NCBI RefSeq assembly: GCF_044324875.1 | Contig: NZ_CP172185.1 | Direction: 5' to 3' (one strand) | Origin: Escherichia coli | GTDB lineage: Bacteria; Pseudomonadota; Gammaproteobacteria; Enterobacterales; Enterobacteriaceae | Length of the DNA: 64,000 nt | Shown here: positions 4,524-46,195 of the stretch, piece by piece | Layout of the letters: every line of letters begins with the position of its first letter | Position numbering within the stretch: position 1 is the first letter of the stretch | Position numbers and translations under genes: made by a program | Notes under the pieces: model-generated | What the model was told of the DNA's origin: nothing | The model's input: only the letters and a program-made list of their open reading frames with translations | The model's database searches: none

Positions 4524-4618
4524 TGCCTGATGGTGATGAGTTAGCACAACCATCAGGTATTTATGGATGAGCTGGATAGAGGGGTAACACTCTATCCAGC
4601 CTTTTGCATATGCTGCTT

Positions 4619-6547: not shown

Positions 6548-6616
6548 GCTGCCTCATTTTCCGACTGGCTGGACTATCTTTAGGACTGGCACAGGAAGAA
6601 TATGAGGAAGCGAACG

Positions 6617-8677
6617 ATGAGCAAGGCAGGCAAAATAACCGCTGCGATTTCAGGGGCTTTCTTGTTGTTGATTGTCGTGGCGATCATTTTGATTGCAACT
6701 TTTGACTGGAATCGACTCAAACCGACCATCAACCAGAAAGTCTCTGCGGAGTTGAATCGTCCGTTCGCTATCCGTGGCGATCTGGGCGTGGTGTGGGAGC
6801 GGCAAAAGCAAGAAACTGGCTGGCGCAGCTGGGTGCCGTGGCCTCATGTGCATGCAGAAGACATCATTCTCGGCAATCCACCGGATATTCCCGAAGTCAC
6901 AATGGTGCATTTGCCACGCGTAGAGGCAACGCTGGCACCGTTGGCGCTGCTGACCAAAACGGTCTGGCTACCGTGGATCAAACTGGAAAAGCCCGACGCA
7001 CGCCTGATTCGCCTCTCAGAAAAGAACAACAACTGGACATTTAATCTCGCCAGCGATGACAACAAAGACGCGAATGCAAAGCCGTCGGCATGGTCGTTTC
7101 GGCTGGATAATATTCTTTTCGATCAAGGGCGGATCGCCATTGATGACAAAGTAAGCAAAGCGGATCTGGAAATTTTTGTCGATCCGTTAGGCAAGCCGCT
7201 GCCGTTCAGCGAAGTTACTGGATCGAAAGGTAAAGCGGATAAAGAAAAGGTGGGTGATTACGTTTTTGGCCTGAAGGCGCATGGACGTTATAACGGTGAA
7301 CCGCTCACTGGTACGGGAAAAATAGGCGGTATGCTGGCGCTGCGTGGCGAAGGTACACCATTTCCGGTACAGGCTGATTTTCGCTCTGGTAACACCCGTG
7401 TTGCTTTTGATGGCGTTGTGAATGACCCAATGAAGATGGGTGGTGTCGATTTACGGCTTAAATTTTCTGGCGATTCACTGGGTGATCTCTATGAACTGAC
7501 GGGCGTTCTGCTGCCCGATACCCCGCCGTTTGAAACGGATGGTCGGCTGGTAGCGAAAATCGACACTGAAAAATCGTCGGTCTTTGATTATCGCGGTTTT
7601 AATGGGCGCATTGGCGATAGCGATATCCACGGTTCTCTGGTCTATACCACCGGCAAGCCACGGCCAAAACTGGAAGGTGATGTCGAGTCGCGGCAATTGC
7701 GGCTGGGGGACTTGGGACCGTTGATTGGCGTTGATTCCGGGAAAGGAGCTGAAAAGTCGAAACGGTCTGAACAGAAGAAGGGTGAAAAAAGCGTTCAGCC
7801 TGCGGGCAAAGTGCTGCCTTATGACCGCTTCGAAACCGATAAATGGGACGTCATGGATGCCGATGTTCGCTTCAAAGGGCGGCGCATTGAGCATGGCAGT
7901 AGCCTGCCGATTAGCGATCTTTCTACTCATATCATCCTCAAAAATGCTGACCTGCGCCTGCAACCGCTGAAATTTGGCATGGCGGGCGGCAGCATTGCGG
8001 CGAATATTCATCTGGAAGGTGATAAAAAACCGATGCAAGGGCGGGCAGATATTCAGGCTCGTCGGCTGAAACTGAAAGAACTGATGCCCGATGTAGAACT
8101 GATGCAGAAGACGCTGGGGGAAATGAACGGTGACGCGGAACTACGCGGTAGCGGTAACTCGGTGGCGGCGCTTTTAGGCAACAGTAACGGCAACCTGAAA
8201 CTGTTGATGAATGACGGGCTGGTGAGCCGCAACCTGATGGAGATTGTCGGGCTGAATGTCGGTAACTACATTGTCGGTGCGATATTTGGTGACGATGAGG
8301 TGCGGGTGAACTGCGCGGCGGCGAATCTTGATATTGCCAACGGCGTGGCGCGCCCGCAGATCTTTGCTTTCGATACTGAGAATGCGTTGATCAATGTTAC
8401 CGGCACGGCAAGTTTTGCTTCGGAGCAACTGGATTTGACTATTGATCCGGAGAGTAAAGGGATTCGGATTATCACGCTGCGTTCGCCGCTGTATGTGCGT
8501 GGGACATTTAAAAATCCGCAGGCTGGGGTGAAAGCCGGGCCGTTGATTGCCCGAGGAGCCGTTGCGGCGGCACTGGCAACGCTGGTTACGCCAGCGGCGG
8601 CGTTACTGGCGCTGATCTCACCTTCCGAAGGGGAGGCTAATCAGTGCCGGACGATTTTGTCGCAGATGAAGAAGTGA
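6617..8677 (+). CDS. yhjG: AsmA-family protein YhjG
   Basis: ORF 6602..8677, start taken at ATG 6617 (MSKAGKITAA...), 686 aa; N-terminal membrane anchor; recognised as YhjG. Confidence 0.9.
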   Translation: MSKAGKITAAISGAFLLLIVVAIILIATFDWNRLKPTINQKVSAELNRPFAIRGDLGVVWERQKQETGWRSWVPWPHVHAEDIILGNPPDIPEVTMVHLPRVEATLAPLALLTKTVWLPWIKLEKPDARLIRLSEKNNNWTFNLASDDNKDANAKPSAWSFRLDNILFDQGRIAIDDKVSKADLEIFVDPLGKPLPFSEVTGSKGKADKEKVGDYVFGLKAHGRYNGEPLTGTGKIGGMLALRGEGTPFPVQADFRSGNTRVAFDGVVNDPMKMGGVDLRLKFSGDSLGDLYELTGVLLPDTPPFETDGRLVAKIDTEKSSVFDYRGFNGRIGDSDIHGSLVYTTGKPRPKLEGDVESRQLRLGDLGPLIGVDSGKGAEKSKRSEQKKGEKSVQPAGKVLPYDRFETDKWDVMDADVRFKGRRIEHGSSLPISDLSTHIILKNADLRLQPLKFGMAGGSIAANIHLEGDKKPMQGRADIQARRLKLKELMPDVELMQKTLGEMNGDAELRGSGNSVAALLGNSNGNLKLLMNDGLVSRNLMEIVGLNVGNYIVGAIFGDDEVRVNCAAANLDIANGVARPQIFAFDTENALINVTGTASFASEQLDLTIDPESKGIRIITLRSPLYVRGTFKNPQAGVKAGPLIARGAVAAALATLVTPAAALLALISPSEGEANQCRTILSQMKK

Positions 8678-8749
8678 TGATAATTGCCGGATGTCTGACA
8701 TCCGGCAATTAAACAGATTTAGAGTGTTGGCAAAGTGTGCTTTGTTCAT

Positions 8750-8783
8750 GCCGGATGCGGCGTGAACGCCTTATCCGTCCTAC
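8750..8783. repeat. REP (repetitive extragenic palindrome) element
   Basis: gccggatgcggcgtgaacgccttatccgtcctac matches the classic E. coli REP consensus; in the yhjG-yhjE convergent gap. Confidence 0.8.
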
Positions 8784-8820
8784 AAATCTTTGCGAATTCA
8801 ATATATTGTATGGAAATTCA

Positions 8821-8846
8821 GGCCTGATAAGCGTAGCGCATCAGGC
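8821..8846. repeat. REP element, second copy
   Basis: ggcctgataagcgtagcgcatcaggc, a REP-type imperfect palindrome. Confidence 0.75.
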
Positions 8847-8858
8847 TTTTCACTCTTA

Positions 8859-10181
8859 TTACAACGATTGATGTCGCGTCTCATGGGTCAGCAGCAGGGC
8901 GATTAACGTCAAGCCAGCCATCGCCGCCAGATATAACCCCACCGCACCTAACCCGTAGTTAGTCTGCAACCAGGCTGCGATATACGGCGCAACGGAAGCC
9001 CCGAGAATCGACGCTACGTTGTAAGAGAACGATGCTCCGGTGTAACGCACTTCTGTCGGGAACAGCTCTGGTAACAGCGCGCCCATCGGCCCGAAGGTCA
9101 GTCCCATCAGACTTAATCCCAGCAGCAGGAAGGCAAAAACCAGAATCGGGTTGCCAGAACCGAGTAGCGGGTTAAAGGCGAACAGCGCGAACAGGATGAT
9201 CAGCGTGGTGATGATTACCATGCTTTTACGGCGACCAAAGGCATCAGCCAGTAATCCGGCGACTGGTACCATCACGCCAAAACCAATCACTGCCATCATC
9301 AGCATCCACAACACTTCGTTACGCGGCAGGCCAAGCCCAACTGGCGCGGCGGCGGTACTAAAGGTCATAGAGTAGACCGTCATGATGTAAAACAGCGTAT
9401 AGGTTGCCAGCATGATGAAGGTACCGAGCACCGTGACGCGTACGTGTTTGGTCAGCAGCGTACCCAGCGGGATCTTCACCTGCTTTTTCGCTTTAGCGAC
9501 TTTCTCAAACACCGGCGACTCATGCAGCGACACGCGAACATACAGGCCGATAATGACCAGCACCGCCGAGAAGATAAACGGCACACGCCAGCCCCAGCTC
9601 ATAAACTGCTCGTCGGTCAGTAGCCAGGAAAGCAGCAAGAAAGTGCCGTTGGCAAAGAAGAAGCCAATCGGTGCGCCCAGCTGCGGGAAGGAGCCATACA
9701 GTGCACGTTTGCGCGGTGGGGCGTTTTCAGTCGCCAGCAGCGCCGCGCCGCCCCATTCACCGCCTAAGCCCAGACCCTGACCAAATCGAGCCAGCGCCAG
9801 CAGCAGCGGGGCGAAAATACCAATCGTGGCATAGCCCGGCAGCAGACCAATCACCACGGTCGAAATCCCCATCGTTAGCAACGAGGCGACCAGCGTCGCT
9901 TTACGCCCAACGCGATCGCCAAAATGACCAAAAACGGCAGAGCCAATGGGGCGCGCGACGAAGGCGATGGCGAAGGTGGCGAGCGACTGGAGCGTTGCTG
10001 CCGTAGGATCGCCCTGCGGGAAGAAGATATGCGGAAACACAATAACGGCCGCAGTGGCGTAAATGTAAAAGTCGAAGAACTCAATGGCCGTGCCAATGAG
10101 AGAGGCGACAAGGACTTTATTACGCGAGTTGATCGGCGTGTATTCTTGCTCGTGGTCGAGTGTTGTGGCTGTTGCTTGCAT
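8859..10181 (-). CDS. yhjE: MFS metabolite:H+ symporter family transporter YhjE
   Basis: 440-aa ORF, 12-TM major facilitator architecture; recognised as YhjE. Confidence 0.92.
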   Translation of the reverse strand: MQATATTLDHEQEYTPINSRNKVLVASLIGTAIEFFDFYIYATAAVIVFPHIFFPQGDPTAATLQSLATFAIAFVARPIGSAVFGHFGDRVGRKATLVASLLTMGISTVVIGLLPGYATIGIFAPLLLALARFGQGLGLGGEWGGAALLATENAPPRKRALYGSFPQLGAPIGFFFANGTFLLLSWLLTDEQFMSWGWRVPFIFSAVLVIIGLYVRVSLHESPVFEKVAKAKKQVKIPLGTLLTKHVRVTVLGTFIMLATYTLFYIMTVYSMTFSTAAAPVGLGLPRNEVLWMLMMAVIGFGVMVPVAGLLADAFGRRKSMVIITTLIILFALFAFNPLLGSGNPILVFAFLLLGLSLMGLTFGPMGALLPELFPTEVRYTGASFSYNVASILGASVAPYIAAWLQTNYGLGAVGLYLAAMAGLTLIALLLTHETRHQSL

Positions 10182-10572
10182 AATCTTTTCTTATTTTTTG
10201 GCTAACGAATAGCCATATTACGCACAGCAAAAGTGATATTTCAATGTGTAACAAATCGCGGAAATGGTCAAAAACCAGGCAAAAAGGGGATAATGTTTAG
10301 GCCAGTGATTTTTCTTCTATGAAATGCTTCACATAATTTTATAAATAGTGGATAAAACTGGTTTCAGGTTAAATAAAAGTTACCAACTGGATTTATATGC
10401 TGGGGTTATGAGTTGGTATGAAATTGTTTGCTCCTGAAGAGATGTAGTTTCAGGTGGTTATGTGCATGTCGTTGCCTGGTCTCTGGCTGGCTTGTACCCC
10501 CTCACCCTAATCCTCTCCCCGAAGGGGCGAGGGGATCGACCGTGCGTTTATCAGGCATTATAAACCAATGAA

Positions 10573-19954: not shown

Positions 19955-19970
19955 AGTTTTACTCAGACAT

Positions 19971-20076
19971 AAAAAAAACCCGGCATAGGGGACCGGGAAG
20001 AGGATAGTCTGCCGTCTCCAGACTAATAAACCGTTATAACACTCCCTGTTGGCACGGGAAACTTTGTGCTCTCAGT
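19971..20076 (-). ncRNA. gadY: GadY small RNA, antisense to the gadX 3' end
   Basis: minus strand reads actgagagcacaaagtttcccgtgccaacagggagtgttataacgg...cccggtcccctatgccgggtttttttt, matching the GadY sequence I recall, with an intrinsic terminator. Confidence 0.8.
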
Positions 20077-20322
20077 AAGTTAAATATAACTTTTACTGGA
20101 AATAAGATCAGCCATTTTTTTATAAACATAAGCTATACGCTGTGCGAAAATATATTCGTGCTGCATTTACTTATTATCAATTAACTGTTATGCAAAACTA
20201 CTTTGTGGATAAATTTTGGTCCTACCAAATCTGGCAGTTTTTGCGCTAAGAAACAGTCTGGCATCATTTCATTAGTATACTGAAATTGAAATAATCGCAG
20301 TAATGAAATATAAGGGATAGTC

Positions 20323-25709: not shown

Positions 25710-26047
25710 TTTAGTCCCTGAAAATTCTTGAGAAATAACGGTTCTTTAAATTGCGCGCGAGGAGAGATATGAGGGATTTACAGACCAGCGGCATAGTGGG
25801 GTTGTCAGCCAGTAAGGTGGGATACAGGCATAGTGATCGACATGGTGAGGTCAACGACAAAAAAAATGTTGCCGTTCTGCCAACAGTTCCTGCCAGCATT
25901 CGGGCAACGAAGGGTTCTACTGGTGGATACATATACCAGGGGAATAAAGTCGTTTTCGCCTCTCCTTTAGTAATCACCGGGGGTAATGAAATCAGCATCT
26001 GCATCCCTCGTCATGCCAGCCATCAATTTCAGTTGCTTATGTCCTGA

Positions 26048-35339: not shown

Positions 35340-35629
35340 CACGTTTGCGCTTAACAAAACACGACCATATGGATAACAAAACCATAGCATTTGCAAGGGA
35401 TAACGCACAGCGCTCTTCACTCCTGATGGGGCATATCGTTTTGCCTGACAAAGAGGGCGTGCTTTTGCGTATTTGCCGAGATACCAGGCAATTTCATGGG
35501 ATATAAACGCCTGTAAACTCACCCGGCGAATATTATCGCTCTGAATTTTAAATAAATTTATTTTTCGCCAGCCACCCCGGTATTAACCCAGGCAGCCAGC
35601 ATTTTTTATTTTCCTCATGGAGAATCGCT

Positions 35630-45960: not shown

Positions 45961-46108
45961 CAATACTATTAGCCAGTGGCTAACATTGCAAGAATTAGCG
46001 ATTTCTTCAGCTGGCGGAGGGAGCACTTCGGTATACATGGCAGTGAAAGAGGATTTATATACTTTCACCGGATTATCGCCGTACTAAGCCTTGTCCGAAT
46101 CCGGATGT

Positions 46109-46195
46109 AAAAAAACCGACTTCGCGTCGGTTTTTTTACTGTTCAGCCCTGAGTTGGTGGCTCTGGCTGGAGTGAGAATGCCATCATCTAACTTT
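46109..46195 (-). ncRNA. agrA: AgrA-like sRNA (dinQ antitoxin repeat); 5' end approximate
   Basis: second near-identical repeat unit with the same terminator hairpin and the ctctggctggagtgaga block; dinQ-proximal copy. Confidence 0.55.

Follow-up and report, generated by a model that had tools for sequence, protein, structure and literature searches.

A hairpin at the 3' ends of the convergent genes yhjG and yhjE of Escherichia coli and the BIME-1 unit beside it

Why do several palindromes lie between the convergent genes yhjG and yhjE of Escherichia coli, and which of them marks the ends of the two transcripts? The question is raised by a stretch of 64,000 nucleotides (the window), in whose list of open reading frames the two genes are separated by a gap of 181 bp. 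Both flanking genes carry these names in the RefSeq annotation of matching genomes, and the best match of the gap region is strain NRZ14408 (99.7%). A first, sequence-only reading had placed a hairpin and two REP-type palindromes here, and had taken the cluster to be a routine feature that acts as a terminator and is a site of genome rearrangement. Counted from the yhjG stop codon, the gap holds the hairpin, a spacer, a REP of the y type, a linker, an inverted REP of the short z (z1) type, and 12 nt before the yhjE stop codon (Table 1). The explanation favoured here, with a probability of roughly 80%, is an old hairpin shared by both 3' ends, serving as a barrier rather than as an intrinsic terminator, and a BIME-1 unit inserted later into the 3'UTR of yhjE. 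Two program-made open reading frames in the region (8618-8749 on the - strand and 8737-8871 on the + strand) have no coding support, and a promoter-like site at 8657-8684 (1 match against 0.7 expected) was attributed to chance.

The feature is an ordinary one that had been annotated and published before. The window gap is 98.3% identical to the K-12 sequence at the same locus, and 8725 and 8778 are among the few bases that differ. The comparison with K-12 REP/BIME annotation that the sequence-only reading proposed as a check leads to an element labelled REP264 (Harris et al., 2026, supplement; bioRxiv 10.64898/2026.03.23.713779), and the first reading holds, including its view of the feature as routine. 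REP264 overlaps a bidirectional terminator by 29 nt (Harris et al., 2026, supplement), so the annotated element reaches K-12 position 3676281, which is window position 8686 and the very start that the first reading had given. The hairpin string quoted there, tgccggatgtctgacatccggca, is present, but it occupies 8685-8707, so that its start was one base off, and the perfect palindrome found in the gap is longer than the string; the end given, 8846, is exactly the end of REP z1. Darling et al. (2010, PMC2892488) chose the yhjG-yhjE gap to illustrate hypervariable intergenic regions and described it as a RIP with a 'REPt' terminator. In E24377A and S. boydii, they reported, unrelated sequence takes the place of the RIP; the distribution of alleles does not follow phylogeny, and regulatory divergence at the locus was suggested as a possibility (Darling et al., 2010, PMC2892488). 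The RefSeq record of K-12 has no repeat features at the gap, nor at another BIME site, so that their absence is uninformative, and the RepRanger supplement has no entry for yhjG or yhjE. What the present analysis adds is the anatomy of the gap, the location of the mapped ends at the hairpin instead of the REPs, the decomposition into 40 and 141 bp, and the allele series.

Table 1. Coordinates, in the window, of the features in and around the yhjG-yhjE gap.
Feature	Position	Strand	Remarks
yhjG stop codon, TGA	8675-8677	+	ORF 6602..8677; AsmA family protein, named in matching RefSeq genomes
yhjE mRNA 3' end, inferred	8678-8679	-	overlap end K-12 3676289 and Term-seq 3676288(+); 2-3 nt downstream of the stem
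Perfect 31-nt palindrome, TAATTGCCGGATGTC-T-GACATCCGGCAATTA	8681-8711	both	15-nt arms, 1-nt centre; shared yhjG/yhjE 3'-end hairpin, REP-like 'REPt' type
Direct repeat TGCCGGATG, copy 1	8685-8693	+	left arm of the hairpin; spacing of 64 to copy 2
Spacer between hairpin and REP y, 37 nt	8712-8748		fold z +0.5 and 0.0, no significant structure
yhjG mRNA 3' end, inferred	8714 (about)	+	SEnd-seq overlap start K-12 3676253; 3 nt past the stem
141-bp insertion	8718-8858		spacer, BIME-1 and 12-nt tail, relative to the 40-bp gaps of E. whittamii and B2 E. coli
Direct repeat TGCCGGATG, copy 2	8749-8757	+	head of REP y
REP, y type	8750-8783	+	head toward yhjG; CTAC tail at 8780-8783; orientation GCCGGATG...CCTAC
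L-type BIME-1 linker, 36 nt	8784-8819		Rfam ES036/CssrF match; aligns with the K-12 yaaX-yaaA BIME linker
IHF-like 13-mer ATTCAATATATTG	8796-8808	+	predicted site; 12/13 match to the IHF consensus WATCAANNNNTTR
REP, short z (z1) type	8820-8846	-	inverted; dG -13.4/-14.3
yhjE stop codon, TAA	8859-8861	-	12 nt from the foot of REP z1; MFS transporter
Rho termination region, centre (approximate)	9047	+ (yhjG strand)	K-12 3675920(-), Rho score 3.08; inside antisense yhjE

The two palindromes next to yhjE are both imperfect, extragenic and of high copy number, and their lengths fall within the 20-40 nt expected of a REP. REP y has one mismatch to the y consensus and REP z1 none to the short z consensus; for each pattern, the number of matches expected by chance in the window is zero. 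Independently of these consensus sequences, each REP used as sole query finds at least 40 places in 5425 of the 5426 complete E. coli genomes. The two REP-type palindromes of the first reading, which was to be given up if no REP consensus could be matched, are therefore confirmed. No other REPs of the y/z1 kind occur elsewhere in the 64-kb window. A hairpin at 4525-4558, GCCTGATGGTGATGAGTTAGCACAACCATCAGGT, has the head GCCTGATG in common with z-type REPs, yet is not a REP.

By definition a REP has the tetranucleotide GTAG just 5' of its stem foot, read as CTAC on the opposite strand, together with one or more stem mismatches, and GTAG is needed for recognition by the REP-associated transposase (Ton-Hoang et al., PMC3333891). 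REP y folds as RNA with a dG of -14.8 and possesses both CTAC and internal stem mismatches, among them a C.T mismatch at the second stem pair (8751/8778) in this strain, where K-12 has G at 8778. REP z1 reads TCAG (8818-8821, + strand) in place of the conserved GTAG, as it does in K-12, and shows a 2-nt gap against the ES036 consensus. Because z1 lacks GTAG and the y stem pair of this strain is broken, it seems doubtful that the pair is active with the REP transposase.

A BIME-1 consists of one y and one z1 REP in inverse orientation, occurs singly, and has a long, well conserved linker L, frequently with an IHF site (Ton-Hoang et al., PMC3333891). In the window, a y and a z1 REP, as identified by the type-specific consensus sequences, stand in inverse orientation, tail to tail. 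The short rather than long z type is supported by alignment, the z REP of the yaaX-yaaA gap being 7 nt longer. There is one unit in the window and no tandem array. The linker scores 34.8 bits (E = 8e-5) against Rfam ES036/CssrF, just under the gathering score of 37.6, and contains the 13-mer ATTCAATATATTG, identical to that in the independent K-12 yaaX-yaaA BIME linker; the ES036 consensus reads AUUCAAUAAAUUG at this place. The 12/13 score of the 13-mer refers to WATCAANNNNTTR, which we take to be the IHF consensus. Classified by sequence, 8750-8846 is one BIME-1 (RIP/RIB) unit with the layout y-L-z1, tail to tail. Rfam matches at gathering score elsewhere in the window are GadY (19966-20079, -), ES205 (25859-25930, -), the shuA/chuA 5'UTR thermoregulator (35601-35632, +) and two AgrB copies (45872-45955 and 46107-46191, both -); the chuA element places the chu haem-uptake locus in this strain, which is therefore not K-12.

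The hairpin beside the yhjG stop codon is identical in K-12. The RNA of each strand folds with a dG of -20.9 kcal/mol (z -7.0 and -7.5), and none of 200 shuffled sequences folds as well. Of the 5426 complete E. coli genomes, 3808 have it, at a single locus in each; the copy search gave a median of two places because a palindrome is matched once per strand. Nothing but its 9-10-nt arms is repeated, in REP y and in the hairpin of the hpt-can gap. Because it is not dispersed, and has neither GTAG/CTAC nor a stem mismatch, the hairpin is not a canonical REP in sequence terms; it is REP-type in behaviour, for which 'REP-like terminator (REPt)' is a fair label.

The history of the gap can be followed in a survey of the same 5426 complete E. 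coli genomes. About 3600 have the window-type gap, 1494 have instead 233 bp of unrelated, GC-rich inverted-repeat sequence that lacks both the hairpin and the BIME, and about 190 B2 strains (UTI89, APEC O1, ATCC 11775 and others) have a 40-bp gap made up of the hairpin alone, which is also the state in E. whittamii. In this ancestral 40-bp gap the hairpin, which starts 3 nt after the yhjG stop codon, also stands 6 nt after that of yhjE. Relative to it the window carries an insertion of 141 bp, with a junction that is ambiguous by 2 nt (TT); 40 and 141 bp give the 181 bp observed, and in this sense the cluster does explain a gap of about 180 bp, as the sequence-only reading had held. Full-length copies of the 37-nt spacer occur only at the yhjG-yhjE locus (3578 genomes), other matches being partial and at chance level. 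Whichever strand is folded, the pentamers GAGTG (8722-8726) and CACTC (8851-8855) at the two ends of the insert are predicted to pair with each other. The insert ends TTAGAGTG and CACTCTTA, which pair in the fold, were considered as terminal inverted repeats of a transposon and judged to be probably due to chance, since K-12 has T at 8725 and the left spacer is not repeated elsewhere.

Other alleles point to further rearrangement. E. coli E600003 is without exactly the 64 bp between the two TGCCGGATG 9-mers (starting at 8685 and 8749), and in its 117-bp gap (extracted locus 121-277) the hairpin is lost, the left arm is fused to REP y, and REP y abuts the yhjG stop codon. Escherichia sp. MOD1-EC7003 has a gap of 409 bp (extracted locus 2403-2812) with four near-identical tandem BIMEs, which start at the same TAATTGCCGGATG fusion point and have a shortened linker with the IHF half lost; these tandem units would be an atypical BIME class. 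Together there are at least five gap alleles (hairpin only, hairpin plus BIME, 64-bp deletion, four tandem BIMEs, and full replacement), which bears out the description of the locus as a site of genome rearrangement. On the other side of yhjE, the yhjD-yhjE gap (10496-10535) contains a GC-rich palindromic repeat, CCCCCTCACCCTAATCCTCTCCCCGAAGGGGCGAGGGGA, labelled REP263 in K-12. As an inverted pair, the CCCCCTCACCCTAATCCTCTCCCCGAAGGGGCGAGGGGA family replaces hairpin and BIME in O111 11128 (extracted locus 420-470 and 560-600) and in the 1494 E. coli genomes, and it also fills the yhjG-yhjE gap in many Enterobacter and Kosakonia species.

In 72 orthologous gaps from other Enterobacteriaceae, the shortest has 36 bp and the longest 1197 bp. 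Those no longer than 60 nt, 24 in number and each from a different species-representative genome, all consist of one strong hairpin (median z -4.7), and these hairpins belong to three unrelated sequence types (GCCGGAT-type, CCGGG-type and CCCTCTCC-type). In Citrobacter and Salmonella, full-size REP-like palindromes occupy the position of the hairpin. What is conserved is therefore the presence of a hairpin and not its sequence, which speaks for a functional 3'-end element common to both genes. A B2 E. coli hairpin variant (extracted locus 378-408) has two A-to-G changes on opposite arms (TAgTTGCC...GGCAgTTA), each giving a G.U pair in the RNA of the yhjG strand and a C.A mismatch in that of the yhjE strand; this is a weak hint that the hairpin structure may be selected on the yhjG strand.

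About a third of E. coli genomes either lack the BIME or have other sequence in its place. Because natural alleles without it exist, it is probably dispensable, near-neutral repeat DNA. An explanation in which the BIME has no function at all and, as selfish or neutral repeat DNA, settled in a 3' gap that tolerates it has about an even chance of being correct; the five or more alleles, the independence of their distribution from phylogeny (Darling et al., 2010, PMC2892488), the loss of GTAG from z1 and the mismatched y stem of this strain all agree with it. It leaves the hairpin unexplained, however, which is kept, or swapped for another hairpin, in every short orthologous gap. It is compatible with the main explanation, by which it is largely adopted for the BIME.

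The role of the hairpin can be judged from mapped transcript ends. Like the anatomy, copy numbers and alleles, the K-12 ends are directly observed; they come from published data, all of them obtained in K-12 and transferred to this strain by coordinates (K-12 position k corresponds to window position w = 8677 + 3676290 - k, as checked on the K-12 sequence). The SEnd-seq ends of both strands derive from a list of 306 bidirectional terminators (reference 47 of the Harris et al. study) that we take to be the SEnd-seq set of Ju et al. 2019. Entry 290 of the list is yhjG:yhjE, with an overlap at K-12 3676253-3676289, a dG of -20.9, and 8-nt flanks that contain 2 A and 3 U (Harris et al., 2026, Table S16); stationary phase is the only condition in which it was detected (Harris et al., 2026, supplement). 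A Term-seq 3' end with a read count of 753 lies at K-12 3676288(+), at the sequence ...GGCAAUUAUC (Adams et al., 2021, PMC7815308, supplementary file 1), and was recorded in one of three growth conditions (PMC7815308); on the K-12 sequence the position was verified as ...GGCAATTATC. The yhjG strand has no dominant Term-seq end in the PMC7815308 list, and no mapped 3' ends fall at either REP in the K-12 Term-seq and SEnd-seq lists. On the published K-12 data, therefore, the convergent 3' ends overlap across one hairpin, as is characteristic of a bidirectional terminator, and the terminator role is assigned to the hairpin because the mapped 3' ends are there and not at the REPs. The view of the cluster as a terminator thus holds, with the hairpin as the part that has this role. 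With the yhjG end at about 8714, the yhjG 3'UTR is about 37 nt long and stops before the BIME; with the yhjE end at about 8678, that of yhjE is about 181 nt long and holds the whole BIME. A Rho termination region lies further on along the yhjG strand (Table 1); it is taken from supplementary file 2 of PMC7815308, where the resolution is coarse (800-nt windows).

An intrinsic terminator has a GC-rich stem and then a U-tract; here the stem is present, and a T-run is found on neither strand (flanks AAACAGAUUU on the + strand and UCAUCACUUCUU on the - strand), with a terminator scan reporting 0 sites. For this reason, and because no more than 2-3 nt separate the mapped ends from the stem, we infer a barrier role rather than intrinsic termination. 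Ends at this distance are compatible with exonuclease trimming and also with real termination. A classical Rho-independent bidirectional terminator, with the REPs as irrelevant passengers, is rather unlikely: the GC-rich stem is very stable, the hairpin is among the 306 listed elements with the 3' ends of both strands flanking it, and the K-12 annotation as a REPt transcription terminator is quoted by Darling et al. (2010, PMC2892488), but the consensus scan is empty, the ends are not placed in a U-run, and the Rho signal downstream on the yhjG strand indicates read-through.

That it is the two REPs which terminate transcription or stabilise the mRNAs, the hairpin being no more than a third REP, is improbable. 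REPs can be partial Rho-dependent terminators and decay blocks, as described for REP325 by Harris et al. (2026), the annotated REP264 extends 29 nt into the hairpin, the TGCCGGATG arm is common to hairpin and REP y, and Citrobacter and Salmonella have their REP-like palindromes at the same position. Against this stand the mapped ends, which avoid both REPs, the sequence and single-copy nature of the hairpin, and the B2 strains, which manage without REPs. Equally improbable is that the BIME-1 would act mainly at the DNA level, as a topological or nucleoid-organising site with IHF on the linker and gyrase or Pol I nearby: the IHF-type site of the linker (12/13) recurs unchanged in another K-12 BIME, IHF sites are frequently reported in BIME-1 linkers (PMC3333891), and RIBs lie at 3' ends of transcription units (Boccard and Prentki, 1993, as cited in PMC12306157), but Harris et al. 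(2026) found neither long-range REP-REP contacts nor a nucleoid effect of REP325, and the element is missing or replaced in roughly one E. coli genome in three.

According to the preferred explanation, of an old barrier hairpin and a later BIME-1 insertion, the hairpin would define the 3' ends of both convergent transcripts, mainly as a pause or collision site for converging polymerases, and would also block 3'-exonucleases that trim read-through RNA terminated by Rho further on. The 141-bp BIME-1 segment would have been inserted later between the hairpin and the yhjE stop codon, so that the 3'UTR of yhjE, about 40 nt long before, now has about 181 nt. The REP stems would then be internal 3'UTR hairpins in yhjE mRNA. 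Polymerases on the yhjG strand that pass the hairpin would probably meet them as further barriers before Rho stops transcription, about 190 nt inside antisense yhjE. As DNA, the linker may bind IHF at its predicted site. Three of these elements we infer: that the hairpin is a barrier and not a true terminator, that the BIME influences expression, and that IHF occupies the linker.

Effects on the two genes may be considered by analogy. Translation is reported to be lower where a REP is situated 15 nt or less from the stop codon (Liang et al., 2015, cited through PMC12306157). REP z1 begins 12 nt after the yhjE stop codon and the hairpin 3 nt after that of yhjG, both within 15 nt, and the effect could extend to yhjE and yhjG. 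REPs overlap 78 of the 306 bidirectional terminators, and the presence of a REP between convergent genes correlates with higher average expression of both (Harris et al., 2026); on mRNA half-life, the same study reports no general REP effect. It is tempting, if rather far-fetched, to regard the gap alleles as a natural regulatory switch, in which REP-mediated recombination, in the deleted allele between the two TGCCGGATG 9-mers, would add or remove a shared bidirectional terminator. If so, lineage-specific expression of yhjG (AsmA-family) and yhjE (MFS transporter), and of their mutual antisense transcription, would follow. The locus otherwise matters little beyond correct annotation. Its lesson is that the transcript-end element within a 'REP cluster' can be a plain single-copy hairpin, the REP pair being a later, dispensable insertion, and the allele series of 40, 117, 181 and 409 bp, together with the replaced gap, is a ready-made natural experiment on REP/BIME insertions and the expression of their neighbours.

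Several known systems resemble parts of this gap. K-12 REP264 has the same y-L-z1 layout and the IHF-type site, and differs from the window by a G-to-T change at 8778 in y. In the K-12 yaaX-yaaA gap (extracted locus 332-483) the layout is likewise the same, with a GCCGG-type hairpin, ATGCCGGGTAACAATCCGGCAT, beside the stop codon, followed by a REP of the longer z type, the L linker with ATTCAATATATTG, and an inverted REP y. REP325 (yjdM-yjdN), the source of the Rfam naRNA4 model, has been proposed to play a dual role as terminator and stabiliser in a 3'UTR, according to Harris et al. (2026; bioRxiv 10.64898/2026.03.23.713779). REP y aligns to the first 32 positions of the naRNA4 model (E = 0.0025), but its 31.4 bits are far below the gathering score of 59.5, and REP325 comprises six tandem BIME-2-type units between tandem genes, whereas the window has one BIME-1 between convergent genes. 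The nearest relative of the hairpin is that of the K-12 hpt-can gap, UUGCCGGAUGUGUUGCAUCCGGCA (REP11), a near twin with the same UUGCCGGAUG and CAUCCGGCA arms and a short loop, which also lies between convergent genes and is also counted in the K-12 REP annotation; the stem in the window is lengthened by AT pairs to 15 bp, and the hairpin adjoins a BIME-1. With the bidirectional terminators of Table S16 it shares a symmetrical hairpin in a convergent gap and a transcript overlap, here of 37 nt, and the dG of -20.9 is the same in that table and in our own fold.
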